Shown here in pieces: positions 1,314 to 42,959 of a stretch of DNA of 64,000 nt (position 1 is the stretch's first letter; each line of letters begins with the position of its first letter). The stretch lies in IMG/VR virus record IMGVR_UViG_3300034105_002043, positions 12,747-76,746 of that record; one strand, given 5' to 3'. The stretch comes from a virus. A program made the translations under genes and the position numbers. The notes beneath the pieces were generated by a model. That model was not told where the DNA came from and did no database searches. It was given only the letters and a program-made list of their open reading frames with translations.

Positions 1314-2015
1314 TTACGCTCTTAACTTGATGGTTTGACCATTAGTTACAGGAGGCGTACCGAATTGTCTGCTTACAGGTTGTCCACCTAATGCTCTCGC
1401 AAGGTTGATGTTATCAGCAGGGTAGAAGTATAACGATACAGTAGCATTTGCTAACACTTGAGCAATCGTGATTTTTGTGAAACCATCAATTCTGTAAGCA
1501 TACTTCATCGCAATAATCGTAGTTTGTTGCTGATATGGGTCAATTGTAGGCACTAATGTTTTTTGTGCCAAGTTACCATTCGCATCTCTTGTGTTAACCG
1601 CCAATGTTTGTAACACTTGGTTAGCAGTAGCCGATTGAATGTAAGTTAAACCAACAGAATATGGGTTGTTCATAAATTGATACAACATCTCTTGGTAGTT
1701 AATGTTAGGGATTCCTGAACTAATAGTTATAGAACCGATAACCAAATTTCCGTTTGTTTGGAAACCTGCGTTGTTGATGTATTGGTATGAACCTAATACG
1801 TCAAAATTAGAAACTGCTGACCCTGAAGTAGAAGTCACGTTAATAATATAAGGTTGAGATGTTTGAATATCTCCACCCATTGACATTCCACCATCTGCAC
1901 GGAAGAAATCATCTCCTGTGAAAGAAAGGTCTTGGTCGATGAATCCATCTGCATTTGAGAAAGACTCCATTGCACTTTGACGTGCATTACTTAAATATCT
2001 TCTTACGTTTGACAT
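1314..2015 (-). CDS. candidate major capsid protein (single jelly-roll-like, acidic N-terminal propeptide)
   Basis: About 50-aa D/F/G-rich N-terminus, then about 165 aa of alternating beta-strand pattern (YIINVTS, ITISSG, VGLTYIQS, LAVNTRD, TIIAMKYAYRIDG, KITIAQ, TVSLYFYP); own promoter and terminator; near the packaging ATPase; no HK97 features. Confidence 0.55.
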   Translation of the reverse strand: MSNVRRYLSNARQSAMESFSNADGFIDQDLSFTGDDFFRADGGMSMGGDIQTSQPYIINVTSTSGSAVSNFDVLGSYQYINNAGFQTNGNLVIGSITISSGIPNINYQEMLYQFMNNPYSVGLTYIQSATANQVLQTLAVNTRDANGNLAQKTLVPTIDPYQQQTTIIAMKYAYRIDGFTKITIAQVLANATVSLYFYPADNINLARALGGQPVSRQFGTPPVTNGQTIKLRA

Positions 2016-14708: not shown

Positions 14709-15368
14709 TTAAGTTTCTAATAATCTGTTTGCTATCAATTTTTGTCCGCTTGGTGTCGGGTGTATTCCGTCAGCAGTCATACTACTTGGAATGTTAATTT
14801 TTTCTACAATAGTTGCTCTTTTTATTGTTGTTGGTATTGAATTTTGAAAGTCAATATATCTGTTTTTTAATTTAACCATTCCTGCTTTTGTTGGAACATA
14901 AGAGGTTGGTTTTAATTTATTTTCGTCCATAAACTTTTCAGCATCGTACCCAACAATGACATAAGGCTCTGCGCCATTCTTAATCGAGAGGTCAACCATA
15001 TCCTGAACATTCTGTAATGCTTTGTCTTTCGTAACTGCGCTAAACATATCATTAACACCACCATATATGTATATTCTATCGTACTTGTTTGTTTTCAACT
15101 TTTCTGTAAGATTAGATAATAACCAATCTGTTCTTTTACCGCCCTTTGCTAAAACATCAATTTTAATTCCTTTCGGTTCTAATTCTTTTTTTAACAGGTT
15201 GGGGTAAGTAAAAGTTACAGGTGTTCCGTTGTAATCAATAGCCGTTATAGAATCCCCGACAAAAAGCATACTTTTTGGTAACTTTTTGCCGAAGAATTTT
15301 TTTACAGTTAGATAAATTAATGCTAATCCAATAGCGGTTGTTACACCGTAAAACAATTTTTTGTTCAT
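14709..15368 (-). CDS. membrane-anchored SGNH/GDSL esterase
   Basis: N-terminal TM; FVGDSIT, GGVND, DGIHP blocks. Confidence 0.9.
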   Translation of the reverse strand: MNKKLFYGVTTAIGLALIYLTVKKFFGKKLPKSMLFVGDSITAIDYNGTPVTFTYPNLLKKELEPKGIKIDVLAKGGKRTDWLLSNLTEKLKTNKYDRIYIYGGVNDMFSAVTKDKALQNVQDMVDLSIKNGAEPYVIVGYDAEKFMDENKLKPTSYVPTKAGMVKLKNRYIDFQNSIPTTIKRATIVEKINIPSSMTADGIHPTPSGQKLIANRLLET

Positions 15369-15372
15369 ATTG

Positions 15373-18300
15373 TTACTTTTTTAATTGAGCAAATGCTCTT
15401 TTTTTAGCATCGTTCCAACTTTCGCCGTCTTTACGAATTTCTTTAGCCAAAATATTTGCTTGTTTTAACATTTCGCTTCCGCTACGTTTTTTAGTTTCGC
15501 CACCCATTTCTTTTTTAGCAGGTTGCATTGCTTTTACTTTTCCTGCAACTTTGTCGCCAACCTCTTGGGCTTCTTCTTTTGAATAGTATTTACCATACTC
15601 TTCTTGATATTGGCTCTTTACAGGTTTTCCCTCGTACTGTTTTGCTACTTTCGCTGAAAGTTTGTCAAAGTTGGAAATTTTGCCACCTCTTCCAAAAGTT
15701 CCTGTTTCCATAAACTTTTTGAATTTGGCTAACCCTTTAACGTGTTGCTCCGAAACTACTTTTTCAGTCAATCTTTTTGGAGAAGAAACCTCTAAAGTAT
15801 AATTAGGGTCTTCGTAAGGCGTGTATTTAAAAATTTCGTAGCCTTTACTTCCTGTTGGTTCGGTTTTTCCACCTTGAGCAGAGGTAATTAATTTACCACT
15901 ATAAATTTTAATTGTAGATAATCTCCAATCGTAATCATTGAAATTATCTATATTAGTTTCTGCTTTCCAATTACCCCTCATATCTTTTCTGATATAAGTT
16001 TCTCCGACTTTAGTTTCTGATTTTCTTGAAGCAGTAGGCGTTGGTTCTGCACCAACAGGTTCAGCCCCTTTCTTAACCCAATATCCGTTTGCAGGTTTAA
16101 CTTTGCTTCCGTCTTTTAATTCAACCTCAACAACATCACGTTTTGGAATATAGTTTGCTTTTGAAGATATATCCCCACCTTTAGCAAGTACGTTAGCACC
16201 ATTTAAAACGTCAGCACCTTTATAGGTTACTTCTTTACCATTACGTTTTACTGTAACGGTTTTGATGTCTGCTTTTAAAATGTATTTTTTAAGATTTCCG
16301 CCTTTAGCAAATTCATTTTTTCCCCAATAACGATAAGTGTCTATCATTCTTCTCTGACCTTTTGGGGTTGTACTGATGTAAAATTCTATCTTTTGCAACT
16401 CCTCTTTTGGAATTTGAGTTTCTTTAACAATATTTATGTATTTATTATATTCCGTTTCATCAAAATCAGAATCTAAAACTTTTTGATACGCTTTTGCTAA
16501 TTTTAGACTATCTCTTTCAGACCTTTCTTTAAAATTAAGTTTTCCGCCTTTAGCGTAAACGTCATTCATAAAACCACCGTCAGCAAACAAAAACTTAACA
16601 TCTTTAATTAACTCATAAGTTGTTAAATCTTGATTGTTTTCAACTTTTCGTTTTAAATTAGAATAAAAGTTATCGGCAAATTCCACAGAAAGTTGTGGCG
16701 ACATTTTAAAATCTTTTGGTAATCCTTTTGCACCATATTTTCCAATTTCTCCCTCATATATAAAAACGTGTCTTCTGTTATTAAACCCACTACTAATACC
16801 TATTGTAAATTTTCCTACTTGTTCTTCTTTGAAAATTATTTCTTTACCAAAAATGCCATCAAAAGTTCTAACTTGTCCGCCGTCAGCGTAAACATCATTC
16901 ATAAAACCCCCGTCAGCATAATTGTTTTCGGCTTTTACTAATTCGTTTAATTCATCGAATTCAAATGAATATTTATCTCCCTCTTCATCTCTTGCTTCAC
17001 AAGCACCATCATTATATACTTTTATAACTGTGTAAACAATACTTCCGTTGTTTTTATATCTAAAACTTTCGCCAACTCTAAATCTTGTCAAAGGTTTTTC
17101 AACGCTCCCACCGTCAGCAAATTTTTGTACGATTTGAAATTCAATACTTGAAACTCTTGCAACAGAAAGAGCAAGGTGTCCTCTTAAAACATCTTTAAAT
17201 GTTTGATTGTAGTTTAAATAGAAGAATTGAGAGTTTAAAAATTTCTCAACACCTGCTTGATTTTTATTTACTAATTTATTTACAAGCATTTCTGTTTCCT
17301 GTTCGTCTAATTCAATTTTAGAAAAACTATTTGGAACTAATTTTTCAACTTGTAAATTACCTAATGAAAAAGCAATTCCCGAATTAGACCAACCTCCGTA
17401 AAGACTTTCATAAGGAACTAACACACAACCTTTAAATTGGTCTTTTAATTTAATTCCAAAAACATAAGTTTCTTTATTTCCGTATGAATCTTGCAATCTT
17501 ACAATGTATTTTGCTATTGCTTTACCATTCATAACTTGTTTGAATCTATCAACTTCGTATTTGTCAAGAAAACCACCGTCAGCATAATTACCATTAATAT
17601 TAATGTTTTCAACAAAAGACAATAAAGGCGATGTTACTACGAAATCATCTCCATCGTAGTCAGATAATGCCTCAACAATAGATTCTTTATCAGAAACTTT
17701 TAAACCTCTTATGAAACCTAATAAATCATCAGTTACAAAGAATTGTTGGTCTTCTTCAAATTCATTATCGTCAGAATCGTAATTTTCTAACGCTTTCAAT
17801 ATTTGTTCTTTTTCACTTAAACTCCCACCATCAGCATATCCTTTTCTTGCAGGGGCATCAAATTTTATTTGCATTTTGCCATCAGTACCTCTTGAAAAAG
17901 TATCGAACTCTTTGTCAGTTATAAAATACTCTTTTCCGTCAACTTTAATTCTTGTTCCACCTGTACCTGCTAATTTATAAAAATCATCAGCCACTTTTCC
18001 CATACCTAATCCACGATAAGTAATTCTACGTTGTTCAAGCCTTTCTTTAAAATTTGGTATGTCTTTAACAGAGGTAACAACCATTCCGCCTTTAGCGTAA
18101 ACATCATTCATAAAACCTCCGTCAGCATATTGATTTATATTTTCAACGATTATTTGTTCTTTGTAATCTACATTTCCTTGCCATCTTGGTCTGCCATAAG
18201 ACCTAACTATTTTGAAAGTAGTTCCATCTTTTAAATCAACTGAATATATATCTTCATAATAAGGGTAACTATCGTTATAAGGGTAATTTTTTCCTTTTTC

Positions 18301-20568
18301 AATTAACTCAATATTTTTAACTACGTTTCCTAATTTACTTGTAATGTACTTATTCAACTCGTCTTTATTGGTTATTGTGATATAGCCATCATCTTTTTTT
18401 CCTGCCATAATGCCTTTGTAGAATGATTGCCAATAAGCATTTAATTTTTCTAAATCTTTATTGTCAATTTTACCACCTTTAGCGTATTTAATTTTACGAA
18501 AAATTTTCCAATTTTCATTTGGTCTTTTTATGTAAAAATTATCATTTTCTATTTTAAAATCATTAGTACCTCTATTAACTATTTGTCCATCAAAAATTTC
18601 TTTTTCATTTTTAAATTCGCTTAATAACCTTTTCATACTAACATAATCACCAACACCTCCGCCTTTGGCGTAAACACTCGAAGCCCCTGAATTATCAGAA
18701 ACAATTCCTCTCGAACCTACATTATCTCCCGCAGTTTTAAAAATTTGTGTTCTTAACTCTTTTAAGTCTTTTTCATTTATTGTAAAAGGAGTTAATTTAT
18801 CCATTTGGAAATGCACAAAGTAAGCCCCGTTAGAATGACTTTGGCTCATTAATCCACGACCTGTTGACAAATCTATTTTACCTATTCTTGTTTCAGATTG
18901 AATTGTAATAATTTCTTTTGAATCATCTTTACCAATTGGATAAACACTAAAATCTTGAGATTTTCTCATTCCTGAAATTTTCATTTCAATTGAAGCAGTT
19001 CCCAATATGTTTTTACTCAAACCAAGAATTTCTGCTTTGGCAACTTCTCCGCCTTTAGCCATTGAAACTATATTATCAAAGAAATCGAAACTTTCAGTAT
19101 ATGAAATATCAGCCACCTTATCAAGTAATCTTTTTGAACTTAAATAAGAAGCCATTTCAGATATGTAATTTTTTTCTTTGCTTGAAATAGGCTCGTTTTT
19201 ATTTATTTTGTTTTTTAAATTCAAAGCCTCTGTATATGATATATCAGACATAGAATCCCCAATACGTTTGTCAATTTTATAGTTAATCATACTTAAAATT
19301 GAATTTTTGTATTTTGGATTTACAGTTCCTAAACTTCCGCCTTTAGCATAAGTACTCATATAACTTGAAACATTTGGGATAGTTCCGTCAAAATATCCGC
19401 CGTCAGCATATACATTATTCATAAAACCACCGTCTTCAAACTTCGCATTATTCCAACTAAAGAATTCAGAGTTAGCAGTAAACTTTTGTTTACCACCCTC
19501 ACGGCTATAAGAAATATCTCCTACTTCCTCTCCGTCCCCGTCAAAAATGCTAAACACGGCATTTGAAACCCCGTTTTCGTCAGAGTTAATGATTGGCTCA
19601 ACTTCGTATTGTTCGTCCTTGTAATCAAACGTATAGTCATCTCTCAAGTCAATTCCCTCCATACCTTTTAAGAAACCTTTCAAGTTCCCCATAGCATCGT
19701 CAGTAAATTTTTTGGTCAATTCTTCTTTTGTTCCCGCAGACACGTTTATTGGTTCGACAACTTCTTTGTTTTCAATTTCTTCCATTTCCATTTCATCATC
19801 GTCATCGTCATCATCATCTTCCCCTAATTGGTCTTCCATTTCGTCCTCCATTAATTCTTTTTGCCCGTCAAGGTAGTGAGTAATGTCTGAAAGGTTTTGA
19901 GTTGCAGTTTCCATTTTTGCAACCACCCAAGCAGGAACAGGTATTTTATCTTCTAAAATATCCTCTAACTCCTCGTGATGATGCTCTACCTCAACGTTTT
20001 GATTCATAATCATTTGTTGATTATCGCTAAAATCTTCTATGTTTCCGCCGTCAGCAAATTTTTTAATAAATTTTACGTTATCTACTACAACATCTTGTAA
20101 ATTTCTTTTATAAGAATGTAAATGATATTGAACATCGTAAATTCCTTGAACATTTCTTGTTTCAATTTTAGAAACTAAATAAACATTGTCTTTGTAAACA
20201 ACTTTATCTCCCTCTTTTATTTTTTCAATGTTGCCACCGTCAGTATAATATTTACCCTCCCTCAAACCATTGTAAAGTTCTAATGCGTTTACAGGTTCAA
20301 AAGACAAATCTCTTTCAAACCCCCAACCCATTCGGTTTCGGTAATTTTCAAGTTCACTTCTTCCTACGCTACCTACTTCAGCACCATATCCTAAATCAAC
20401 AATAGCCCATAGATATTCAGGGTCTTCAGGGTCAGAATTTAATATGAACCAAGTTCCTGCCCCATACGGGTTAAATATCTTGGCTACAACCTCTTGTTTA
20501 GAGAGGTCGCTACCAAGTGAATATTGTTTGAATAATTGTCTGTCTATTGTTTTATTAAATAACTTCAT
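15373..20568 (-). CDS. polyvalent protein/polyprotein 1 (N-terminal DUF2958-like domain; about 20 [FYML]xxGG linkers)
   Basis: KIFNPYGAGTWF...VDLG.G.E.G.V...EL......ERDLSF (DUF2958 pattern); repeated YADGG/FADGG/YAKGG between unrelated 40-150 aa segments; basic C-terminal AKEIRKDGESW motif. Confidence 0.8.
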   Translation of the reverse strand: MKLFNKTIDRQLFKQYSLGSDLSKQEVVAKIFNPYGAGTWFILNSDPEDPEYLWAIVDLGYGAEVGSVGRSELENYRNRMGWGFERDLSFEPVNALELYNGLREGKYYTDGGNIEKIKEGDKVVYKDNVYLVSKIETRNVQGIYDVQYHLHSYKRNLQDVVVDNVKFIKKFADGGNIEDFSDNQQMIMNQNVEVEHHHEELEDILEDKIPVPAWVVAKMETATQNLSDITHYLDGQKELMEDEMEDQLGEDDDDDDDDEMEMEEIENKEVVEPINVSAGTKEELTKKFTDDAMGNLKGFLKGMEGIDLRDDYTFDYKDEQYEVEPIINSDENGVSNAVFSIFDGDGEEVGDISYSREGGKQKFTANSEFFSWNNAKFEDGGFMNNVYADGGYFDGTIPNVSSYMSTYAKGGSLGTVNPKYKNSILSMINYKIDKRIGDSMSDISYTEALNLKNKINKNEPISSKEKNYISEMASYLSSKRLLDKVADISYTESFDFFDNIVSMAKGGEVAKAEILGLSKNILGTASIEMKISGMRKSQDFSVYPIGKDDSKEIITIQSETRIGKIDLSTGRGLMSQSHSNGAYFVHFQMDKLTPFTINEKDLKELRTQIFKTAGDNVGSRGIVSDNSGASSVYAKGGGVGDYVSMKRLLSEFKNEKEIFDGQIVNRGTNDFKIENDNFYIKRPNENWKIFRKIKYAKGGKIDNKDLEKLNAYWQSFYKGIMAGKKDDGYITITNKDELNKYITSKLGNVVKNIELIEKGKNYPYNDSYPYYEDIYSVDLKDGTTFKIVRSYGRPRWQGNVDYKEQIIVENINQYADGGFMNDVYAKGGMVVTSVKDIPNFKERLEQRRITYRGLGMGKVADDFYKLAGTGGTRIKVDGKEYFITDKEFDTFSRGTDGKMQIKFDAPARKGYADGGSLSEKEQILKALENYDSDDNEFEEDQQFFVTDDLLGFIRGLKVSDKESIVEALSDYDGDDFVVTSPLLSFVENININGNYADGGFLDKYEVDRFKQVMNGKAIAKYIVRLQDSYGNKETYVFGIKLKDQFKGCVLVPYESLYGGWSNSGIAFSLGNLQVEKLVPNSFSKIELDEQETEMLVNKLVNKNQAGVEKFLNSQFFYLNYNQTFKDVLRGHLALSVARVSSIEFQIVQKFADGGSVEKPLTRFRVGESFRYKNNGSIVYTVIKVYNDGACEARDEEGDKYSFEFDELNELVKAENNYADGGFMNDVYADGGQVRTFDGIFGKEIIFKEEQVGKFTIGISSGFNNRRHVFIYEGEIGKYGAKGLPKDFKMSPQLSVEFADNFYSNLKRKVENNQDLTTYELIKDVKFLFADGGFMNDVYAKGGKLNFKERSERDSLKLAKAYQKVLDSDFDETEYNKYINIVKETQIPKEELQKIEFYISTTPKGQRRMIDTYRYWGKNEFAKGGNLKKYILKADIKTVTVKRNGKEVTYKGADVLNGANVLAKGGDISSKANYIPKRDVVEVELKDGSKVKPANGYWVKKGAEPVGAEPTPTASRKSETKVGETYIRKDMRGNWKAETNIDNFNDYDWRLSTIKIYSGKLITSAQGGKTEPTGSKGYEIFKYTPYEDPNYTLEVSSPKRLTEKVVSEQHVKGLAKFKKFMETGTFGRGGKISNFDKLSAKVAKQYEGKPVKSQYQEEYGKYYSKEEAQEVGDKVAGKVKAMQPAKKEMGGETKKRSGSEMLKQANILAKEIRKDGESWNDAKKRAFAQLKK
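16543..16584 (-). repeat. 42-nt linker repeat encoding ADGGFMNDVYA(D/K)GG, copy 1 of 5
   Basis: Other copies at 16876-16917, 18085-18126, 19396-19437 and 21232-21273 (in the next gene). Confidence 0.9.
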
Positions 20569-20580
20569 AGTATTTCTAAA

Positions 20581-23500
20581 TTAATCGTTTTTATGTGTGT
20601 TAGATGTAGGCATTGGTAATTCTTCAATGAACTCAAATGCTCTTGGGTTAATTTTTGCAAAACTTTCAGGATTTCTGTTTTTTGGCGTGTAACCCATAGT
20701 CGCTCTTACTCTTTTATCATCGCTCAAGTCTATGTTTTCGTCAAGTGGCTTAATAACAACTTTATTGCTTTTGCTACTTACATTGCTTGTTAAGTCGATT
20801 GGTTCGTCAAAAGTTTCAACATAAACTTCCATTTCAGGGTATCTGTAATTAAAGTTGTTATCTGCTCTCATAAAACCCTCGTTGTCTTCAAACATACCGC
20901 CGTCAGCATAACTACTAACTATGTCAACACCCCAATAGCCATTTCCGAACCATTTTTTAGTTAGTGTTTTAGAAATAAATTCTTCAACATCAAACTTATC
21001 TAATCCACCACCTTGAGTAACTCCTACGGGAATTTGGATTTCAACAACAATTTTTTGTGAATAGTCTTTTTCAAATAATGGTTTTACGATTGTTACACCC
21101 CAATAACCATTACCAAACCAATTATTAGTTAATTTTTTTGACAAAAATTCAGTAAATTCAAATTCGTCTTTAACAACTCTTTCGTAGTTATAAGGAACTT
21201 TAATTTCTGCTAAAAATTTACCTTTTAATTCTCCGCCGTCAGCATAAACATCATTCATAAATCCTCCGTCAGCCATAATTTTTTTACCGCTTTCATCAAA
21301 AACTTCTATTTTACTAAATTCATCATATTTTTTGTATCTGTTAGCGGTATCAATAGCCATCTCCAAAGTTTCTCTAATTTCTGATTGCTTTTCCCCACCA
21401 TCTAAATAGGTAATTTTAAACTTACCTTTTGTTTTTCCGTATGGTTTAAATGCTACTCCACCGCCGTAAGCCATTTGACTTAAATCAAAGTTCATAGCCC
21501 AATTATCAAAATCTCTTACATTATTTGTATATCCGTACTTGTCTTCTAAAACTCTAACTTCTTTTTGACCAAAATTTTCATACAAACCTCTTGATTTTGC
21601 TTTTGTTATTAAAGCCTTTTTCATTTTTTGTATGTCTGCTATTTCTCCGCCTTTAGCATAACTATCGTCATCAAAAGGAATACCGAAACTACTAACATTA
21701 TCGTCTTCTTCATCATCAATGTCGTCATAATCATCATTGTCATACTTATCCCAAGCGTCTTGCCAAGTTTTGCTTACAAAATTAAAGTCATCTCCTGTTA
21801 CTCCCTGAATATGAAAGCCATAAATATAACCTCTTTGCATACGGGCAATTTGAAAATCTACAATTCCTTTTTCAGTATATCCCTCTTCGGTTTCTCTATC
21901 AGAGTTACCTTGTATAACATCGCTTGGTTTCTCATATTCCCAAACCCAAAAATCTTTTTTTATAGTATTATCAAGTTTATCGTAAAGATTAAATCCATCT
22001 TTATCTTTAACTTCCCCGCCGTTAGCGTAACCATACATTTCTCTTGACGATTCGTCCCATTCTTCCTGTGAAATTTGCATTTCAGCCAATTCAGCCAATT
22101 CAGGGCTTAATTGAGAATAGTCGCCCTCAACAGTATCTATTAAAACTTGCAACGCATCAACTTTACTCATACTTTTTGAGTAGTTTTCGTATTGCATTGT
22201 TTCAAAAGGGTCTAAATTATCTAAATCAAAATCTTCTAATTCAGCATCAATGTCATTTACTTCCATTTGTCCGCCGTCAGCATAGCCAAAAGATTCTCTT
22301 TGCTCAATATCTAAAAATACCTTGTCTAAATTTTTATCCTCGTGTCTTGAAAACCATTGAGATTTTGCAGGTAGAGAATTTTTAGCAGGGGAAACCCCTC
22401 TTATGTCTTTAACTTTTTCAAAGTCTTTTTCAGTCATAAACATAATTGTAGTTCCTGCACTTGTATTAGCCCCGCCAAAAGAGTACAATGAAACATACTT
22501 TGCATCGCCTCTATTAATTTGTTGCGTTGCTCTATGGCTTCCTGAATTAACAAAAACATAGCCTTTAGGGGCAACTAATTTATTTGAGTCTTTTTTTACA
22601 ATTGAGGTAGGAGCATTACTACTAACATTTGCGTTTTTGCTTTTAGATTTTAGTTTTCTAAAACCTTTTAATTTATACGACTTTGGATTTTTATTACCAT
22701 AATCATCTTCTAATTTTATTTCTGAAAAATCTTTATCTATTTCATAAATAAATCCCTCTGTGCCATATACAATACTTCCTTGTTTTTCAGTTTTTTTTAC
22801 ATAATCGCCTATTTTAAAACTTTCATCTACATTATTACCACCACTTCCGCTAATAGGCTGATAATCTTTTTTTACCCAATATCCATTTACAGGCTTGATT
22901 GTTTTTCCATTTTTAAGAGTAACTGAAATTACATCACGTTTAGGAACGTAAAATGCAATATTAGTTAAATCTCCGCCGTCTTTTAATAAGTTTGCACCAT
23001 TTAAAACATCGCTACCTTTAACAATTCTTCTTGAGCCTTTAATCATTAACGCTACATAATTTATATCTTCGTTGTCTATATATTTTTTTAGTTTTGAAGA
23101 AGCAGTCGCTTTAGCACGACCTACCATAGAATCAAATTCTCCGTCAAGAAGTCTTTTGTAAATTCCCTCATAATACTCAATCATTTCGGTATCTTTTCTT
23201 TCTTTTCTCATATCTATAAGACGGTTTGCGCTTTCTTTCATTTCAGCCACAACTTCAGGAGTAAATTTTCCTGTATCGCCTTTTTCTCCTAATTTAACAA
23301 GATTATAACCTGTACTTTGATAATTTTTATCGTATGTGAATATAGGCGTGTTACCTGTGGTATCAAGTCTTAATTCTCCATAATCCCCATTAACAGGGTC
23401 GCCATAATTATTCATTACAGTAGCGTATCTTTTTTCATCTTTTTGCCAAACAACATCTCCTGTATTAAATTCAACTGTTCCTACAAATCCGCCACTTTCA

Positions 23501-26500
23501 AAATATTCATTATACTCGTCTTCGGTTAACTCGTTTTCAATAAGCAAGTTTCGCAAATACATTTTCATAATTGGGCTTTTAGCCTCCTCAACAGTAATTG
23601 GTTTACTTATTCCCTCTTTTACGCCAAAACTGTTTTCATTCCACATTTCAGCAACTTGTTTAGGGGTAAGACCTTTTACTTTTTCGTCTTTTTCAGAAAT
23701 AATTTTATTCAGTTCTTCTTGAGAACGAATTCCTCCGCCATTAGCATAAACCCCACTCATAAATTGAGTTCCGTCTGAAACGTCAGGAGTAAAACCTCCG
23801 TTAGACATTTTGTCTAATTTTTTCCAAATACCCTTACTTATTAAGAAATTAATGTTGTCAACAGAATAAATAGAATTTTCTCCGTCTTCCCAATTTACAT
23901 TATACACATTAGGAATATTAGTTTCTTTTCCTATTGTTAGTTGCATTTTTTCTCTTTTATCGAAGTATTTTTCTCCATACCCTGCTTTGAATTTTAATGC
24001 ACCGCCATCAGCCATTTTATATGCTTTATCAGATTTAGCAAAAGCAACAACTTCTTTTTGTTTAGGGTTATTTTTATTACCTACTAAAGCAGTAATAAAG
24101 TCGCTTTGGCTTATCATTTTTCTACCAAGACCTGACATCAAGTTAGATAGTTCGGAATCAGTTAGATTATGCTCTTTCGCAAAAGCATCAACTCCCACTT
24201 CCCTTGTATTTGTTAAATAAGCAATTTGCTCAATATAAAGTTCTCTCATAGATGGTCTGCTTTTGGTTTTTCCACCATAAGCGTATTGACCTTGAGAAAC
24301 GTGAATATTAAAAGCACCTTTTATATCTGAATCTAACGTTGACCAATCAGATGAAATTGCTTTCGTAATTTTATCAGTTGTAAGTTTATTCTTATTACGT
24401 CCATATTTATTTATTTGGTCATTATGGTCATATAAAAAATGTTGTCTTTGTCTTTCTGTATAATTATTCCAAACGTCTTCAGCAGTTCTTCCCTTATAAT
24501 TATTAGGAATAGAACCACCGTCTTTGTAAATACCTTGACTTGCGCCCTCGCCCAAGTAGTAGTTAACATAAGATTGAGAAGCATCATTGATTACTTGTTG
24601 GTTTTGAGCCATAGCCCCACCCAACTCATAATTATTTTCAACGAAATTTTTATATTTTCTGCTAATTATCTGACCAATTTCTTCGTCATTTAATACTTTA
24701 ATTCCATCACTTGAAACTTCATATATATATTCAAAGTCATTTTTTTTCTTTGGGTTTGGAGGAAAAGGCAACGATTTTAACATTATATGATTGTCTTTAT
24801 CAACATAATCTATAAAAGTATATACATTAGACCCTGCGGTATGTTGAGTATCTATAACTTTATAAATATCCCCCTTTTTCAAACCTAATACATTATCTCC
24901 AACTGCACCACCTACGGCAAACAACTCTCCGCTTGACATAGCACCTGTTTCTCCAACAAGACCTGTGTAATAAGTTCCTGAAACCCCGCTTAAAGGCATA
25001 TCGGCATTTAAACCGCCTGTACCTCCTCCTGAATGACCTGCTAAATCAGTTGTCATAAATGCGCCACCAAGTTCAAAAGCACCTGTATTTTGGAAGTTTC
25101 CAAAGTTAGGGTCTGTCATAAAAGGAAGTGAGCCTCCGTTAGCATATTCTTTTTTTGAATGTTCAATAGCAAATTCTTTTGCTTCGTCCATAGTGTCAAA
25201 GTCGGCTAATTTTTTTATTTCCCAATTTTCACTTTCATCATTATAAACATTGTCGTAAACACAATACATATCATTCTCTTCTTGAACGAATATTTCAGTA
25301 TTGCCTAAACCATATTTATTAGAACCCTCTTTGTAAAAAATACCGCCTTTTTCAAAAGAAACATTTTGCATTGTTAAATTGTTCATTCCGCCGTCAATTC
25401 CACCGCCGTTAGCAAGTTTGGTATTTGGATTTCCTCTTTTATTCGCTTCTTTTAAAATTTCTTCAATAGCATCTTGTCTTTCTTCTCTATTGCCTTTTAA
25501 TTCAATTATAACATCGCTATAATCTAAATCTTTCATTTTTGAATATATTTTTGCTATTTTTTCGTCACTATAAGACTTTAATTCTGCTCTTGCTTGTGTT
25601 AAATAAATTGTCATACCTCCGTCAGCATAGTTGCCTTTACTTTGCGCTTTAGCCCAAAAATAATTTACTACTTCAGGAATATTCTTTTTGTAGTATGGTT
25701 GATTATCCATAGCCCACGCTTTAACTTCGTCTTTTGTTTTAAACGGTTTTTGCCAAGAACGACCACTCATAATTTGATTAAATGTAGGTTCTAATTCTTC
25801 GATAAAATCTCCAACAGTCCAACCCTCCCAAACGTGCTTATCCATATTAACAGAACCGCCATTAGCAAATCCCTCCATTTTTAATCTTTCTGACAACCAC
25901 TTAATAGATTCTTCTTTGCTATCAAAATCTCCTACTTCTTCCCAACTTCCTGTTACTGATGGAAGATAATATAGTTTTTTTTCTTTATCCAAATAATTAA
26001 ACCCAACTCCACCATCAAAAACGGGAAGTTCATTGTTGTTTAATTTTTCTCTTGCTTCAACGGCATATTCAAATTTTAAAAACGGCATTATTTTACCGCC
26101 TTTAGCAAAAGATTCATCGCTTTCGTTTAATTCATCAATTTCTGCTTTAATTTTATGAGATTTTAAATATTTAGAAAAATTTTCAAGTATCTCCATTAAA
26201 TCTTCAGTACTTCCATTAAATCTAAAACCAAAATGCGTTCCCTCTTCTCCCATAAATGGATTAGGTTCTAAACCTGCTGAATCCAAATAATCAATAATAT
26301 CGTCATATCTTTCATCTGAAATTTCTGTTTTTACAAGAACGTTACCCGCAAAACTATTTGATTCGGAATTTTCTAAATCAAAATCACTAAAGTTTAAAAT
26401 ACCACCGTTAGCAAAAGAAACATTTTGTATTGTCAAGTTGTTCATTCCGCCGTCAAGAAATCTTGGGTTTTTGATTTCTTTAAGATTAGGATTAATAAGG

Positions 26501-27687
26501 AATTCGTAAACTCTCTCTCTATCCAAACTATCTCCACCACCCCAAGTATGTTCAAATTCTAATTGAGCCAAATATTTGTTTACTGCTTTTCTAACTTGCG
26601 GTTTAGTAAATTCATATACACCATCTTGTTCATAAGATTCATAAGCCTCATATACATAATCTACAAAACGATTAATTTCGGATTGAGATATTTCGTCAGT
26701 TACAGGAACACTTACAGTTTTGCCTTTAACTTCTCTCATCATTGGTATAGGTTCTTCAAACATTCCGCCGTCAGCAAATTTTTTAATATCCCAATTAGTT
26801 TTAAATTGACCCGTCTTTTGATTTATTTTATCAATAAAAGCAATTTTTTGTCCTTTAATATAAATAATGTTATTATTGTCAATAGTTATATCATTTTCTT
26901 TTGCATACCTATTAACCATTGCATTTTTTTCGGTTTTTTTATTAAATTGTTTTTCTTTACTTAAATCGTTAAGCATTTTTCCGTAAGTTACGGCAATGTT
27001 TTCTATTGCACCACCACTTGCTAATAAAGGCATATTTTTTGGATAATTAGGTGCTAAACGGTCAGCGTGACGGTCACGAGTTTCCCAATACTTTCTACCT
27101 AACTTATTAGGGAAAGTACCATATTTATTTGAAGTATTCCCCTCTTTAGTAACAAATCTTGCACCTCTCGGTTTTGCAGTTCTTACCATATCACGTCTTA
27201 AATCAGATTTTGTAAAACCTTGTAACTCTTTTTTAGTTCTAACAAGAGCCAAAAGTTTTTCTAACTCACTTTTCTTTTGCTCAACAACTTGCTCTCTACG
27301 TTCTTTTAAAACTACTTTAGCACGTTCCATAGCATCTTTCCAAGACTCTCCTGCTTTTTGAATTTCTTTAGCAACAGACATTATGTTATTACTTGAACCT
27401 TTGGCAGTTGAAGTAGTTGCAGGGGCTTTTGCTTTAGTAACTTTTTTTGCTTTAACGGCTTTTTGTACTTTAGCAACTTTTTGAGCAACCGCCTTTGGCT
27501 TTTTTACCGAATCAGGATTAAGCGTTGTAATTTGGTCTAAAATCTTTTCAGCAACTTTGTTTTTTGCCTCATCAGTTTCTTCAAAATTATTGGTAAGTTT
27601 TTTAACTTGCGCCAATACTTTTTGGTCTTTTTCGGAAACTTTAGATTGGTCAATAGTTTCGTATTTTTTTAATAAAGTAGAGTTCAT
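20581..27687 (-). CDS. polyvalent protein/polyprotein 2 (about 28 [FYML]xxGG linkers; basic N-terminus)
   Basis: K/A-rich N-terminal 220 aa, then many short modules delimited by FADGG/FANGG/YANGG/YADGG; shares two modules with polyprotein 1. Confidence 0.8.
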   Translation of the reverse strand: MNSTLLKKYETIDQSKVSEKDQKVLAQVKKLTNNFEETDEAKNKVAEKILDQITTLNPDSVKKPKAVAQKVAKVQKAVKAKKVTKAKAPATTSTAKGSSNNIMSVAKEIQKAGESWKDAMERAKVVLKERREQVVEQKKSELEKLLALVRTKKELQGFTKSDLRRDMVRTAKPRGARFVTKEGNTSNKYGTFPNKLGRKYWETRDRHADRLAPNYPKNMPLLASGGAIENIAVTYGKMLNDLSKEKQFNKKTEKNAMVNRYAKENDITIDNNNIIYIKGQKIAFIDKINQKTGQFKTNWDIKKFADGGMFEEPIPMMREVKGKTVSVPVTDEISQSEINRFVDYVYEAYESYEQDGVYEFTKPQVRKAVNKYLAQLEFEHTWGGGDSLDRERVYEFLINPNLKEIKNPRFLDGGMNNLTIQNVSFANGGILNFSDFDLENSESNSFAGNVLVKTEISDERYDDIIDYLDSAGLEPNPFMGEEGTHFGFRFNGSTEDLMEILENFSKYLKSHKIKAEIDELNESDESFAKGGKIMPFLKFEYAVEAREKLNNNELPVFDGGVGFNYLDKEKKLYYLPSVTGSWEEVGDFDSKEESIKWLSERLKMEGFANGGSVNMDKHVWEGWTVGDFIEELEPTFNQIMSGRSWQKPFKTKDEVKAWAMDNQPYYKKNIPEVVNYFWAKAQSKGNYADGGMTIYLTQARAELKSYSDEKIAKIYSKMKDLDYSDVIIELKGNREERQDAIEEILKEANKRGNPNTKLANGGGIDGGMNNLTMQNVSFEKGGIFYKEGSNKYGLGNTEIFVQEENDMYCVYDNVYNDESENWEIKKLADFDTMDEAKEFAIEHSKKEYANGGSLPFMTDPNFGNFQNTGAFELGGAFMTTDLAGHSGGGTGGLNADMPLSGVSGTYYTGLVGETGAMSSGELFAVGGAVGDNVLGLKKGDIYKVIDTQHTAGSNVYTFIDYVDKDNHIMLKSLPFPPNPKKKNDFEYIYEVSSDGIKVLNDEEIGQIISRKYKNFVENNYELGGAMAQNQQVINDASQSYVNYYLGEGASQGIYKDGGSIPNNYKGRTAEDVWNNYTERQRQHFLYDHNDQINKYGRNKNKLTTDKITKAISSDWSTLDSDIKGAFNIHVSQGQYAYGGKTKSRPSMRELYIEQIAYLTNTREVGVDAFAKEHNLTDSELSNLMSGLGRKMISQSDFITALVGNKNNPKQKEVVAFAKSDKAYKMADGGALKFKAGYGEKYFDKREKMQLTIGKETNIPNVYNVNWEDGENSIYSVDNINFLISKGIWKKLDKMSNGGFTPDVSDGTQFMSGVYANGGGIRSQEELNKIISEKDEKVKGLTPKQVAEMWNENSFGVKEGISKPITVEEAKSPIMKMYLRNLLIENELTEDEYNEYFESGGFVGTVEFNTGDVVWQKDEKRYATVMNNYGDPVNGDYGELRLDTTGNTPIFTYDKNYQSTGYNLVKLGEKGDTGKFTPEVVAEMKESANRLIDMRKERKDTEMIEYYEGIYKRLLDGEFDSMVGRAKATASSKLKKYIDNEDINYVALMIKGSRRIVKGSDVLNGANLLKDGGDLTNIAFYVPKRDVISVTLKNGKTIKPVNGYWVKKDYQPISGSGGNNVDESFKIGDYVKKTEKQGSIVYGTEGFIYEIDKDFSEIKLEDDYGNKNPKSYKLKGFRKLKSKSKNANVSSNAPTSIVKKDSNKLVAPKGYVFVNSGSHRATQQINRGDAKYVSLYSFGGANTSAGTTIMFMTEKDFEKVKDIRGVSPAKNSLPAKSQWFSRHEDKNLDKVFLDIEQRESFGYADGGQMEVNDIDAELEDFDLDNLDPFETMQYENYSKSMSKVDALQVLIDTVEGDYSQLSPELAELAEMQISQEEWDESSREMYGYANGGEVKDKDGFNLYDKLDNTIKKDFWVWEYEKPSDVIQGNSDRETEEGYTEKGIVDFQIARMQRGYIYGFHIQGVTGDDFNFVSKTWQDAWDKYDNDDYDDIDDEEDDNVSSFGIPFDDDSYAKGGEIADIQKMKKALITKAKSRGLYENFGQKEVRVLEDKYGYTNNVRDFDNWAMNFDLSQMAYGGGVAFKPYGKTKGKFKITYLDGGEKQSEIRETLEMAIDTANRYKKYDEFSKIEVFDESGKKIMADGGFMNDVYADGGELKGKFLAEIKVPYNYERVVKDEFEFTEFLSKKLTNNWFGNGYWGVTIVKPLFEKDYSQKIVVEIQIPVGVTQGGGLDKFDVEEFISKTLTKKWFGNGYWGVDIVSSYADGGMFEDNEGFMRADNNFNYRYPEMEVYVETFDEPIDLTSNVSSKSNKVVIKPLDENIDLSDDKRVRATMGYTPKNRNPESFAKINPRAFEFIEELPMPTSNTHKND
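25342..25395 (-). repeat. linker repeat encoding DGGMNNLT(M/I)QNVSF(EK/AN)GG, copy 1 of 2
   Basis: Second copy at 26401-26454. Confidence 0.85.
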
Positions 27688-27702
27688 ATTTTTAATTTTT
27701 AA

Positions 27703-28815
27703 TTATTCGTATAGTTTTAATAAATCTTCAAGGTTTTCTGTTTCTTCTATTGGATAAAGCGATAATAAATCTTCAAGGCTATCTGTTTCTTCAATTGGTT
27801 TTTCAACTTTACCGACAGGAGGAATTACTTCTATAATTTCATCATAGTCATAATATACGTCCATTGATTTAATATTTTCCTTTATTTTTTGTCTTATATT
27901 TTCCAATGCTTCAGTTTCGTTATCGGCATAAACATCGTGTATTTTAGGGTATTTAGTTCCCCCGTCTTTTTCACTTGCTGAAACAACAACATTTATCTTG
28001 TAAAGAGTTTTACCTGCATTTTCATCTTCAACCTCAATTATTGGTTCGACAACTTTTTTAGGTTCTGACTTGCTACCAATACTTTGGTTTTCTTTAGCAA
28101 GAATTAAAGTTTGCTTTATAAGTTCAATAATTTCGTTTTTAATGCTTTCGTCTTTAATCTCGTTTAACTTTTTTGTATTGATGACATTATAAAAATCATC
28201 TAAAGTTATATCTTTAGTTGGCGTTTGAACAAATTCATTCTCGATAAAACTTTTAGTAATCACTTCTTCAAAAGGGAATCTATCTCTAACAACACTCCAA
28301 TCAATACTATCTTTTGAAGCAAATGGCGTAATAAGATATTCAGACCAATTAGTATCGAACTCATTTTGCAAATCGCTTAATTTGTTCAACCTATCAAATA
28401 CTATGTATTTTTCTTTTGCTTTATTAAAATCAAATAAAACAGGTCTTTCTAAAGTAAAACTTAAAATCTTTCTTTCCGTTTGTCCAAGTAACATCATTTG
28501 TTTGTAATCAAACTCCACGACAGAGCCGATTTCAACACCGTAAACTTTATCAAATTTATAAGTGTCTAAATTAGAACCGTCAAATTCTGTATTTAGGTTT
28601 GAAATATCGTCCCTATTGGTTAAATTATAGTTTTCCCAAATAAACAAAGGCAAATTATTTTGCCATTTAGAATATTCAGAACCTTTTTTAAATGAAATAT
28701 CTGCGTTAAATTTTATTAACACCAAGTTGTAAAGGGTCTTGAAAGAAACCAAGCATAAGTTGCCTAATCTATCATAAATTAAATTCCCCTCTTTGTAATC
28801 CATTATTAATTCCAT
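27703..28815 (-). CDS. hypothetical protein
   Basis: 370-aa ORF in operon; acidic C-terminal duplication PIEET..LEDLL.LY x2. Confidence 0.75.
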   Translation of the reverse strand: MELIMDYKEGNLIYDRLGNLCLVSFKTLYNLVLIKFNADISFKKGSEYSKWQNNLPLFIWENYNLTNRDDISNLNTEFDGSNLDTYKFDKVYGVEIGSVVEFDYKQMMLLGQTERKILSFTLERPVLFDFNKAKEKYIVFDRLNKLSDLQNEFDTNWSEYLITPFASKDSIDWSVVRDRFPFEEVITKSFIENEFVQTPTKDITLDDFYNVINTKKLNEIKDESIKNEIIELIKQTLILAKENQSIGSKSEPKKVVEPIIEVEDENAGKTLYKINVVVSASEKDGGTKYPKIHDVYADNETEALENIRQKIKENIKSMDVYYDYDEIIEVIPPVGKVEKPIEETDSLEDLLSLYPIEETENLEDLLKLYE

Positions 28816-40649: not shown

Positions 40650-42959
40650 TTATAAATCTAAAAACATTTTTAAATAATCAGGGTTTGTTGTTTGTGTTTT
40701 TCCTCCTCTACTATAATTGTTTATAGGAATTGAGGTATAAAACGTTGTATTGTCGAAACCGCATTTATGACAAACGTACATATCCCATAATTCAGAATCT
40801 TTTCTATTCCATTCCCAACCGCAGTTGATACATCTTATATCTTTACTCATTTCTCCACCATTATTATAATTAGCAACTTTATAACCTAATTCATCAATCA
40901 AGTCATCGTCTTGGCTATATCTTCCTGACTTGCTTTTACCGTTTACAATTTTGTATGTAAAGGCGTTTAATCTCGCTAATCCCCAAGCCACTCTACTGTT
41001 TGGCTTTCCGCCTGAAATAGTTGGTCTGTGAGATTTAGAATAAGCCCCCATTCCTCTACGAACAACTGCTTTAGCACTTGATAAGTTTATTTTCTTATCA
41101 GGGTGTTCAGCATTATGTTCCTTAACCTTGTTTTTTATAGCATCAACAGTCTTATCGTCAAATTTAATCAATTTTGCGCTTGATAAGTCTTTTGAAGAAC
41201 TTTTTTTGTTAATGTCGCTACCTTTAACTTGGTCTTTTTTTGGTGCGGGTGTTTGTGCTATTGTACGACCACCTTTTTCGTAGTCAACTTCTATGTCCCA
41301 ACAACCATAATGACCTGTGCTTAACATTTTTTCTTTTGCCTGTTTAAAAGTATATTTTCTATACTTCTTTTTATCTCTTGGATTTATATCCCCAAAATAA
41401 TAATAAAGTTGCTTTGGCATTATAATTTCTCTGTTATTAGAAAAATCATAAACGTTTTCATCGTCCTCAATAAAAGCGTGTCCATATCGAAGACCCTCTA
41501 TTGCACTATGTTTAACCTCTGCGTGAACTAAATAAGGCGTTCCCTTATAGTCAATATCTTTGTTTTTTATTTCTAATGCTAATTGACCTGCAACTAAATA
41601 ACAATCTCCTTTTGTCTTTCCGCCTTTGGCGTATCTAATATCATCACTCCCTGAATCAAAAGTTGTATTAGTTCCGTCAGCAAGTTTTATTTGATTAGGC
41701 TCAAAAACGACATAAGTGTTTTGAATTCTTGCATTTGCTTCAATCATATTTTCTAAAATAAGACCATCATTTTTATTAAGTAGTGCTATATCAACTTTTT
41801 CAGATAAAACTTTATACCAATGTTTACCTTTAGCATCAAAAACAAATGGTTTTTTTATATTTAAAAAACACATTAATATATTTTTTTGCTCGAAAAGATT
41901 TAATAAGTTTTTATTAAATTCAACTCTTTTTTTAGATAAATCTCTAACTATTTCTAAATCAATTTCAGATTTAGTTTCAAGCCAATTACTTAATGCTTTT
42001 TCAAATTTTTTTTCAATTAATTTTGTTTCTTTTGTTTTTTTAGTTAAATCCAAAGAATAGTTTTGAGCAGTTTTCTTATCGTTTGTAAAGTAAGCACCAT
42101 AATCTCTAATTCCAAATCCAAATTCATCTTCTTTTATTCTATCTACCATTTCAAAAATAGTAAAATCTTTTGTTGTCCCGTGATAAACAACTAACGGCTC
42201 TCCGTTTTCGTCAACAACTTTACTCGCATTAGCAGGGTCGTTTTCCCAATCCCCAAACCATTTTTTAAACGCAGGAGTACGAACTAATTCGTACTGCGTA
42301 GCATTTAGATTACTTGGTTTTCCGTTAGGTGCTAATAACCCCCCTTTTTCAAATCGAATATCATCACTCCCTGAATCAAAAGTTGCATTAGTTCCGTCAG
42401 CGTTTTTTATTTGATTTGAATTAGAAACCATATATATATTTCCGCAATATTTATATTTGTTTTTAATATAGTCATCTACGGAAATTTCTTCAGAAGTATC
42501 TATAATATCTTCTACAATTATTCCATCAGTATTTTGTGGTACAAAAATGTCATAAAAATAAGATGATTCGTTTTTGTTTACAGCCCACCACAAAGCAGAA
42601 TCTAACTTGTTTATATACCTTTCAACATCATTAAATTGAGAGCAATTAGCGTTCCAATTTACGGGTCTTTTTATATTTATAAAACAAGACAAAACATCAT
42701 TTCCGTAAGTTTCCGCTACTATTTTTTTGTCTGTAAAATAATGAGCAGTTACTTCATTGCTAAATTCATTTATTGCAACATAACTTCCGTGATAAACAAC
42801 CAAAGGCTCTCCGTTCTCGTCAACAACTTTACTCGAATTAGCAGGGTCGTTTTCCCAATCCCCAAACCATTTTTTAAACGCAGGAGTACGAACTAATTCG
42901 TACTGCGTAGCATTAAGGTTGCTTGGTTTTCCGTTAGGTGCTAATAACTTGTTGCTCAT
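40650..42959 (-). CDS. polyvalent protein 4 (2x ART-PolyVal-like, Cys-His protease/transglutaminase-like, DUF5824-like, Zn ribbon)
   Basis: RTPAFKKWFGDWE...GEPLVVYHG x2; GDCY...GHAFIED; VVRRGMGAY..SHRP...WGLARLNAF; CINC...CHKC; each bounded by FEKGG/YAKGG/YEKGG/YNNGG/YSRGG. Confidence 0.8.
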   Translation of the reverse strand: MSNKLLAPNGKPSNLNATQYELVRTPAFKKWFGDWENDPANSSKVVDENGEPLVVYHGSYVAINEFSNEVTAHYFTDKKIVAETYGNDVLSCFINIKRPVNWNANCSQFNDVERYINKLDSALWWAVNKNESSYFYDIFVPQNTDGIIVEDIIDTSEEISVDDYIKNKYKYCGNIYMVSNSNQIKNADGTNATFDSGSDDIRFEKGGLLAPNGKPSNLNATQYELVRTPAFKKWFGDWENDPANASKVVDENGEPLVVYHGTTKDFTIFEMVDRIKEDEFGFGIRDYGAYFTNDKKTAQNYSLDLTKKTKETKLIEKKFEKALSNWLETKSEIDLEIVRDLSKKRVEFNKNLLNLFEQKNILMCFLNIKKPFVFDAKGKHWYKVLSEKVDIALLNKNDGLILENMIEANARIQNTYVVFEPNQIKLADGTNTTFDSGSDDIRYAKGGKTKGDCYLVAGQLALEIKNKDIDYKGTPYLVHAEVKHSAIEGLRYGHAFIEDDENVYDFSNNREIIMPKQLYYYFGDINPRDKKKYRKYTFKQAKEKMLSTGHYGCWDIEVDYEKGGRTIAQTPAPKKDQVKGSDINKKSSSKDLSSAKLIKFDDKTVDAIKNKVKEHNAEHPDKKINLSSAKAVVRRGMGAYSKSHRPTISGGKPNSRVAWGLARLNAFTYKIVNGKSKSGRYSQDDDLIDELGYKVANYNNGGEMSKDIRCINCGWEWNRKDSELWDMYVCHKCGFDNTTFYTSIPINNYSRGGKTQTTNPDYLKMFLDL
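42179..42948 (-). repeat. direct repeats of ART-domain flanks
   Basis: 42789-42948 approx. equals 42179-42339; 42360-42401 approx. equals 41640-41681. Confidence 0.9.

Follow-up and report, generated by a model that had tools for sequence, protein, structure and literature searches.

Recurrent in-frame junctions as sites of module gain, loss and replacement in two giant viral proteins

How can a virus hold dozens of unrelated small protein modules in a single reading frame and yet keep changing which modules it carries? The question is raised by two adjacent open reading frames (ORFs), here called genes A and B, which together fill positions 15373-27687 of a 64,000-nucleotide (nt) stretch of viral DNA. 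This stretch, the window, comprises bases 12747-76746 of the 76,746-bp IMG/VR virus record IMGVR_UViG_3300034105_002043, which is rated 100% complete by CheckV. It has a GC content of ~32%, and nearly every gene lies on the minus strand. A first-pass annotation, made from the sequence alone, had described near-identical DNA repeats between unrelated modules of A and B and had proposed that these repeats let modules be inserted, deleted or shuffled in frame by homologous recombination, like an integron array inside an ORF. All modules are indeed contained in the two uninterrupted frames, and the junctions between them are sites where modules are gained, lost and replaced, both in related viruses and in near-identical lake strains. 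The best overall explanation, to which a probability of roughly 0.7 is given, is that A and B are giants built of modules that are linked by junctions, and that modules are exchanged at the junction DNA.

Five copies of a 42-nt repeat are spread over the two genes (Table 1). All of them lie in frame and encode (A/E)DGG-FMN(D/N)VYA(D/K)GG. Any two agree at 34-40 of 42 bases (81-95%) and share uninterrupted matches of 11-24 nt. The two copies of a 54-nt repeat are likewise in frame. In the region, 14 pairs of 42-mers match at 34 positions or more, against 0 in each of three shuffles. The five 42-nt and two 54-nt copies stand as the first-pass annotation had given them, and so does its statement that the flanking modules are unrelated to each other (BLASTP). 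Both kinds of repeat are the longest version of a far commoner motif and represent the coding image of two tandem junctions. The junction peptide has the short form [YFM]-A-[DKN]-G-G, followed by any residue and a hydrophobic one, and is often extended to F-M-N-[DN]-V-Y-A-[DK]-G-G. In a logo of 459 sites from the virus and its relatives, P5 is Y/F in 61%, P4 is A in 52% and P3 is D/K/N in 63%, followed by G-G and by a hydrophobic residue at P2′ in 65%. Because the residues upstream tend to F-M-N-x-V, the decapeptide is regarded as the full signal and the pentapeptide as its minimal form. A strict motif, [FYLM]A[DKNEYS]GG, is fitted by 35 of the 61 GG sites in A and B, and the remaining ORFs of the window contain 0-3 junction-type sites each. 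Segments that run from one GG to the next have a median length of 62 amino acids (aa), and 41 segments measure exactly 10 aa.

The stretch is present in 24 lake-water metagenome runs. Contigs from four of them, compared with positions 15000-28000, yielded 12 joints. In six, both ends fall inside junction footprints, which make up 7.6% of the region (p ~5e-10), and all six junction-bounded skips are multiples of three (231, 252, 963, 2781, 297 and 219 nt). The 252-nt skip removes exactly one 84-aa module, and the 219-nt skip belongs to the joint 25396>25616. The joint 18115>20897 leads over 2781 nt from a junction in B to a junction in A and thereby crosses the gene border. At 24621>24919 (297 nt), which was seen in two runs, 6 replacement bases reduce the net loss to 291 nt or 97 codons. 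The best case is 18084>19048 (963 nt), where 12 bases are identical at both sites; its contig matches the window at 99.4% identity on one side and at 87% on the other and hence represents a recent mosaic in a near-identical strain. Three more of the junction-bounded joints lie on 13-16 nearly identical bases, which brings the number on 12-16 bases to four of six.

Junctions also mark the borders when related viruses are compared. For A, 68% of BLASTP alignment ends lie no more than 8 residues from a GG border, and for B 59%, against a chance level of 23-24% and a highest value of 42% in 2000 randomisations. In a 12-way alignment of the B tail, one module is found in some proteins and missing from others, with its limits exactly at two GG sites, and the slot after the repeat at 16543 is filled by different modules. 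Compared with the related loci L003, L006 and L007, the identity is 92-93% over the 300 nt before this repeat, 98% inside it and 32% (random) after it, and the loss of identity begins with the first base past the repeat. The first-pass annotation had named module gain or loss with breakpoints at the repeats as the test of its proposal, and this is the pattern that relatives and strains display: module order is not fixed, and the breaks fall at junctions.

In viral contigs, 15 related loci were found. Synteny is fixed across them, yet the length of A varies between 2277 and 3282 aa and that of B between 1168 and 1731 aa. For a module map, all proteins were cut at GG and the pieces clustered into families. 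Across twelve related contigs the head and tail of the proteins are conserved and the interior is mosaic: in A, family 10 is always first and family 12 always last; in B, the DUF2958 module is always first and families 2-6-1-(16)-3 are always last; the interior comprises 63 shared families and 124 singletons. Families 2, 21, 39 and 41 are not tied to one gene and turn up in A or in B, depending on the virus. Along the window the closest relative switches module by module, so that a module of at most 44% identity can adjoin one of 99%, and for 13 of the 43 window modules none of eleven relatives has a homologue. With an exhaustive profile search, 788 representative proteins (50% clustering) were seen to share modules with B. 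In 48 of these polyproteins, the number of distinct neighbours of an interior family is close to its number of members (e.g., 13 left and 12 right neighbours for 16 members), and a head or tail family has a single neighbour on its outer side. As a separate observation, a basic helical motif, AKEI.K.GESW.DA..RA, occurs both close to the head of A and at the very end of B (Table 1), and some single-protein relatives (e.g., P0042, P0045 and P0048) carry it at both ends. It may signal packaging or docking of the entire chain.

Table 1. Positions of junction repeats, genes and other features in the window
Feature	Position	Strand	Remarks
42-nt double junction copy 1	16543..16584	-	gene B; ADGG-FMNDVYAKGG
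42-nt double junction copy 2	16876..16917	-	gene B; end of in-frame 231-nt skip 16876>17108
42-nt double junction copy 3	18085..18126	-	gene B; end of joints 18084>19048 and 18115>20897
42-nt double junction copy 4	19396..19437	-	gene B; EDGG-FMNNVYADGG
42-nt double junction copy 5	21232..21273	-	gene A
54-nt junction copy 1	26401..26454	-	DGG-MNNLTIQNVSFANGG; 47/54 match to copy 2
54-nt junction copy 2	25342..25395	-	DGG-MNNLTMQNVSFEKGG; adjacent site is the end of joint 25396>25616
Single junction motif MAKGG	19048..19062	-	partner end of the 963-nt in-frame skip
Gene A	20581..27687	-	2368 aa; ~37 segments, 36 GG sites, 18 strict junction motifs (ORF, translation, GG map)
Gene B	15373..20568	-	1731 aa; ~26 segments, 25 GG sites, 17 strict junction motifs (ORF, translation, GG map)
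97-aa module (A 927-1023)	24616..24921	-	between two GG sites; missing in strain variants
DUF2958 match	20272-20493		B residues 26-99 (profile search)
Basic helical motif near head of A	27316..27378	-	residues 104-124
Basic helical motif at tail of B	15391..15453	-	residues 1706-1726; nearly invariant in 12 relatives
Acidic run in B	19770-19827		Asp/Glu, D8; GAT/GAC-rich simple repeat
ART-PolyVal protein	40650-42959		769 aa
Zeta-toxin-domain protein	42964-43911		separate gene
Beta-rich protein	1314-2015		233 aa

How such exchange might be guided is indicated by the codons at the junctions. In the 35 strict motifs of the window, Ala is GCT in 33 (background 33-40%), the first Gly is GGC in 21 (background 9-13%), and Asp is GAC in 14 of 16 (background 35-37%); the same preferences are found in eleven relatives. 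A context-matched control, which used codons in the same context in non-giant genes, gives 84% versus 36% for Ala GCT, 49% versus 23% for GGC as the first Gly codon and 7% versus 27% for GGA at that position. The 32 canonical decapeptides use TTT in 32, AAT in 30, GTT in 31 and GCT in 32 cases, with Tyr split 16:16 between TAT and TAC. The partly fixed codons of this lineage can be written as GCT-GAC/AAA-GGC/T-GGA/T and TTT-ATG-AAT-.AT-GTT. A comparison of synonymous sites among the copies had been suggested by the first-pass annotation, and its outcome is divided: codons are shared beyond general usage, but the Asp codon follows a context rule and orthologous junction codons are not better conserved than others, as detailed below. 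As the peptide is kept across distant lineages with different codons, it is selected as a peptide, and the role of the junction as a recombination joint may be a mere by-product of that selection. Hence it is the peptide that is deeply conserved, with a partly frozen coding version in each lineage.

Given a conserved peptide and partly fixed codons, 12-42 nt at each junction are nearly identical and in frame. On this DNA, short-homology recombination or template switching could act, either between co-infecting relatives or within one genome, and selection would then keep products with intact modules and remove broken ones. Head and tail modules may be retained because they serve the whole protein, perhaps in packaging. 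The part of the earlier proposal that concerned in-frame insertion, deletion and shuffling is seen directly as a pattern; for the homologous mechanism, we infer that recombination driven by homology accounts for the exchange better than selection that filters random joins.

Several observations weigh against a homology-driven process. The RecT, ERF and tyrosine-integrase families were not found in the 76.7-kb record. The joints come from assembled contigs and not from raw reads, and for two of the six that are bounded by junctions, the two ends have hardly a base in common in the window sequence. Among relatives, the motif is missing from some module borders, and a 72-aa insertion in L008 and L015 (B ~1520; alignment columns 359-430) sits within a conserved module with no GG at its limits. 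Codon conservation at orthologous junctions does not exceed that at other identical residues (Ala 0.79 versus 0.71, Gly 0.53 versus 0.58), and GG codon pairs show no genome-specific homogenisation (p = 0.38), hence no signal of concerted evolution. GAC as a junction-specific Asp codon was rejected as well: genome-wide, 77% of the Asp codons that precede Gly are GAC, and with this taken into account most of the bias at the junctions vanishes. The rule itself is specific to the lineage. In non-giant genes of this lineage (the record and loci L004-L017) GAC makes up 77% of Asp codons before Gly, though only 38% of all Asp codons, whereas all 11 Asp codons in this position are GAT in a distant lineage (L020, L023; GATGG versus GACGG).

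The rival explanation that survives best places the signal in the peptide only. Illegitimate joins would occur anywhere, selection would keep those that fall in frame within a linker, and the likeness of the DNA would be a by-product. It can draw on the codon results just given, on the two joints with little shared sequence and on the one indel away from any junction. It is further favored by the distant lineage, which has junctions of the MADGG type and keeps the GCT preference (67% versus 23%) but uses GAT and GGT-GGT. What peptide selection leaves unexplained are the GCT bias and the monomorphic TTT, AAT and GTT codons. Nor does it predict that footprints covering so little of the region hold both ends of half the joints, that four joints lie on 12-16 shared bases, or that identity breaks exactly at the last base of the 16543 repeat. 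Random linker joins should also give ragged or partly duplicated motifs, in place of the 41 segments of exactly 10 aa. On balance this explanation is considered unlikely, and exchange at junction DNA is preferred.

A second rival holds that the junction codons are fixed for reasons other than recombination, e.g., for the control of translation by a folding pause at module ends or by off-frame stops, and that module exchange is incidental. When GA. or AA. follows GCT, TGA or TAA arises in the -1 frame, and AAT-GAT likewise yields TGA, so that AAT and GCT, two of the four monomorphic codons, are those that create off-frame stops. The GCT preference in two lineages with otherwise different junction codons also suggests selection over shared descent. 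However, GTT and TTT are equally fixed and create no stops, and the even use of TAT and TAC speaks against a general choice of optimal codons. GCT is used in 80% of cases before stop-forming codons and in 60% before others, a difference that is underpowered (n = 15, p = 0.10). The breakpoints are left unaccounted for as well, and this rival is quite improbable.

Least probable by far is a true integron-like system with sites for a site-specific recombinase, or chimeric metagenome assembly at the repeats, since the regular placement of the repeats and the metagenomic origin of all comparison sequences are outweighed by the absence of any PF00589 (Phage_integrase) match in the record (a control search gave matches in 14 of 14 genomes), by the failure of the seven repeats to fold as DNA (z-scores of -1.1 to +1.1, no common hairpin), by exact shared runs of at most 24 nt, which are below the assembly word size (k = 31 in Logan) and argue against chimeras, by the same junction architecture in contigs of three samples (L003, L006 and L007), by giant ORFs that are all open in every relative, and by contigs of independent runs that span the window's own junctions. 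The integron-like label of the first-pass annotation therefore holds as an analogy only.

What the peptide does in the protein can be addressed with less confidence. It may serve as a flexible hinge, or as a proteolytic site that would release the modules as small effectors after delivery. Precursors that are cut at GG are known from adenovirus, African swine fever virus (pp220/pp62), coronavirus (PLpro sites), polyubiquitin and double-glycine bacteriocin leaders. A and B resemble them in that many units per chain close with x-x-G-G, preceded a few positions earlier by a hydrophobic residue; they differ in that peptidases of clan CE (C5, C48) and of family C39 are undetectable in the record. 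Like protease-processed polyproteins in general, A and B have a recurrent short site at their unit borders, and in a structural model the junction GGs lie in stretches predicted with low confidence. Against cleavage, S78 and S77 proteases are undetected in the record too, MPTase-PolyVal (PF18818) has no match in it at E ≤ 1, and the sole peptidase among the 25 best-represented of the 44 Pfam families of the 90 other ORFs is a lysis-type M15. The conserved 370-aa gene upstream of A was considered as a protease and dropped, as none of its Cys or His residues is invariant and it matches no family. A junction with a dual purpose is a doubtful extension of the preferred reading: cutting by a viral or host protease, or self-cleavage, would free ~60 effectors from two injected precursors, and the junction codons would double as an in-frame crossover kept by selection, which would make the genes a promoter-less cassette array internal to an ORF. 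If this were true, the virus population could reshuffle its early anti-host arsenal.

The structural model covers B 1427-1731 and was obtained with AlphaFold from 56 homologues at a predicted local distance difference test (pLDDT) score of 71.5; an earlier model from a 12-row alignment (pLDDT 47) was set aside as too poor. Junction GGs at model residues 38-39, 202-203 and 263-264 fall into low-confidence stretches between parts predicted to be folded. The non-canonical SAQGG (140-141) is located inside a confidently predicted beta-sheet, and, in agreement with this, the two pieces that flank it always co-occur. Hence not every GG is a joint. A Foldseek search of the model against the PDB gave nothing below E = 0.05.

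The two proteins can probably be assigned to a known class. In the window's own copies, profile searches match only DUF2958 in B and phrog_7799 in A (residues 336-402). Close relatives that share most modules with B contain LPD11 (large polyvalent-protein-associated domain 11; E = 1.4e-29) and, in some, RelA_SpoT, and both belong to the domain inventory of the polyvalent proteins. Together with a neighbouring protein that carries an ART-PolyVal domain, these matches would place A and B in that class, giant multidomain proteins encoded by phages and conjugative elements (Iyer, Burroughs, Anand, de Souza, Aravind 2017, PMC5512222). By this evidence, A and B appear to belong with the phage polyvalent kind as giant beads-on-a-string proteins, each composed of 25-40 small modules that for the most part bear no relation to one another. 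The 2017 proposal viewed polyvalent proteins as packages of early anti-host effectors, and the paper puts forward delivery with the DNA, processing by an embedded zincin-like MPTase and possible recombinational variability. Like A and B, they are giant viral proteins that join many unrelated small domains. The polyvalent proteins described there have 2-15 domains, fewer than the modules counted here, and the zincin-like MPTase named there as the processing enzyme (frequent, not universal) is undetected in this virus. The same text was found to make no mention of "linker" or "glycine", and a repeated junction peptide, its fixed codons and exchange at it are apparently not described there.

No paper describing the junction was found in the literature, where a query by the motif letters was swamped by unrelated words. 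The protein class is already known, and exchange guided by linkers is a long-standing idea for phage genomes; what sets A and B apart is the scale and regularity, with dozens of interior joints that share one peptide and partly fixed codons. There is, in addition, direct natural evidence of module exchange, including exchange between strains with 99% identity elsewhere. With its 5-10 residues, the junction is a defined peptide that recurs hundreds of times across the family of 788 representative proteins, and the locus gives exact positions at which to ask how polyvalent proteins diversify and whether they are cut. It suggests a way in which viruses could trade small effector domains without a promoter, a ribosome site or an own gene for each. 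In addition, it provides a catalogue of ~100 or more small modules with borders known to the residue, which helps their single expression and their screening against bacterial defence systems.

Exchange at short conserved borders has parallels in other systems. In Botstein's modular theory, short conserved border sequences are proposed to guide homologous exchange between lambdoid phages, and the likeness lies in a mosaic in which the best relative changes at each border. Botstein's modules are genes or gene blocks with linkers that are intergenic or at gene ends; here they are domains in one frame, and the linker is a conserved in-frame peptide. Polymorphic-toxin cassettes swap at a conserved peptide motif, the VENN motif of CdiA or the end of the Rhs core, and in phage receptor-binding proteins collagen-like repeats or His boxes flank the variable parts. 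In both, a short peptide-coding stretch acts as an in-frame crossover at the border of constant and variable regions, as proposed for A and B. These proteins swap one terminal cassette, whereas A and B have dozens of interior joints that accept almost any neighbours. With integrons, A and B share unrelated cassettes that are parted by a recurring sequence and a high turnover among relatives; the IntI recombinase and attC-like hairpins are absent here and the cassettes are parts of one ORF, so that the resemblance is functional only.

A possible fate of the proteins is suggested by the cargo proteins of crAss-like phages, which are large, carried in the virion, ejected into the host and possibly partly unfolded (Bayfield et al. 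2023, PMC10172136). By analogy, virion carriage and ejection would be a plausible fate for A and B. The crAss_CARG1 family (PF25725) is absent from the record, with no match at E ≤ 1, so that A and B do not fall into the cargo protein C1 family, and no hallmark crAss gene was identified.

No isolated phage matches the DNA or the proteins of the virus, and a scan of bacterial and archaeal species genomes gave no relative, hence no host or prophage. Terminase, portal, HK97-type capsid and prohead protease are not among the Pfam and PHROG families listed for the 90 ORFs, tRNA genes are not present, and no orphan cassettes were seen outside the giant genes. The whole record encodes two DNA methyltransferases, several glycosyltransferases and a MoxR-type ATPase. 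Upstream of A lie the conserved 370-aa protein, a 529-aa protein, the MoxR-type AAA+ ATPase and a third giant of 2281 aa, followed further upstream by the ART-PolyVal protein and then by the zeta-toxin-domain protein. The ART-PolyVal protein has five junction-like sites, such as RYAKGG and DYEKGG. In the zeta-toxin-domain protein, YAEGG at residues 14-18 and MEQGG near the C-terminus bracket the toxin domain.

Within the giants, Cys is nearly missing (1 of 2368 residues in A, 2 of 1731 in B). Contigs seem to be cut at the acidic run in B. At position 26958, contigs of three runs diverge into 9-13 T at a place where the window has no homopolymer, which may be a strain variant or a contig-end artefact. 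The 233-aa beta-rich protein near the start of the window (compared with loci L027-L031) is 98-99% identical in relatives with mosaic polyproteins and 62% identical in a distant lineage. Its acidic stretch of 50 N-terminal residues contains FFRADGG. The idea of an ADGG cleavage site shared between this capsid candidate and the giants was dropped, as the 62%-identical distant relative does not retain this sequence. One 102-kb relative has several paralogues of the protein, among them a 406-aa ORF in which two copies of the domain stand in tandem.

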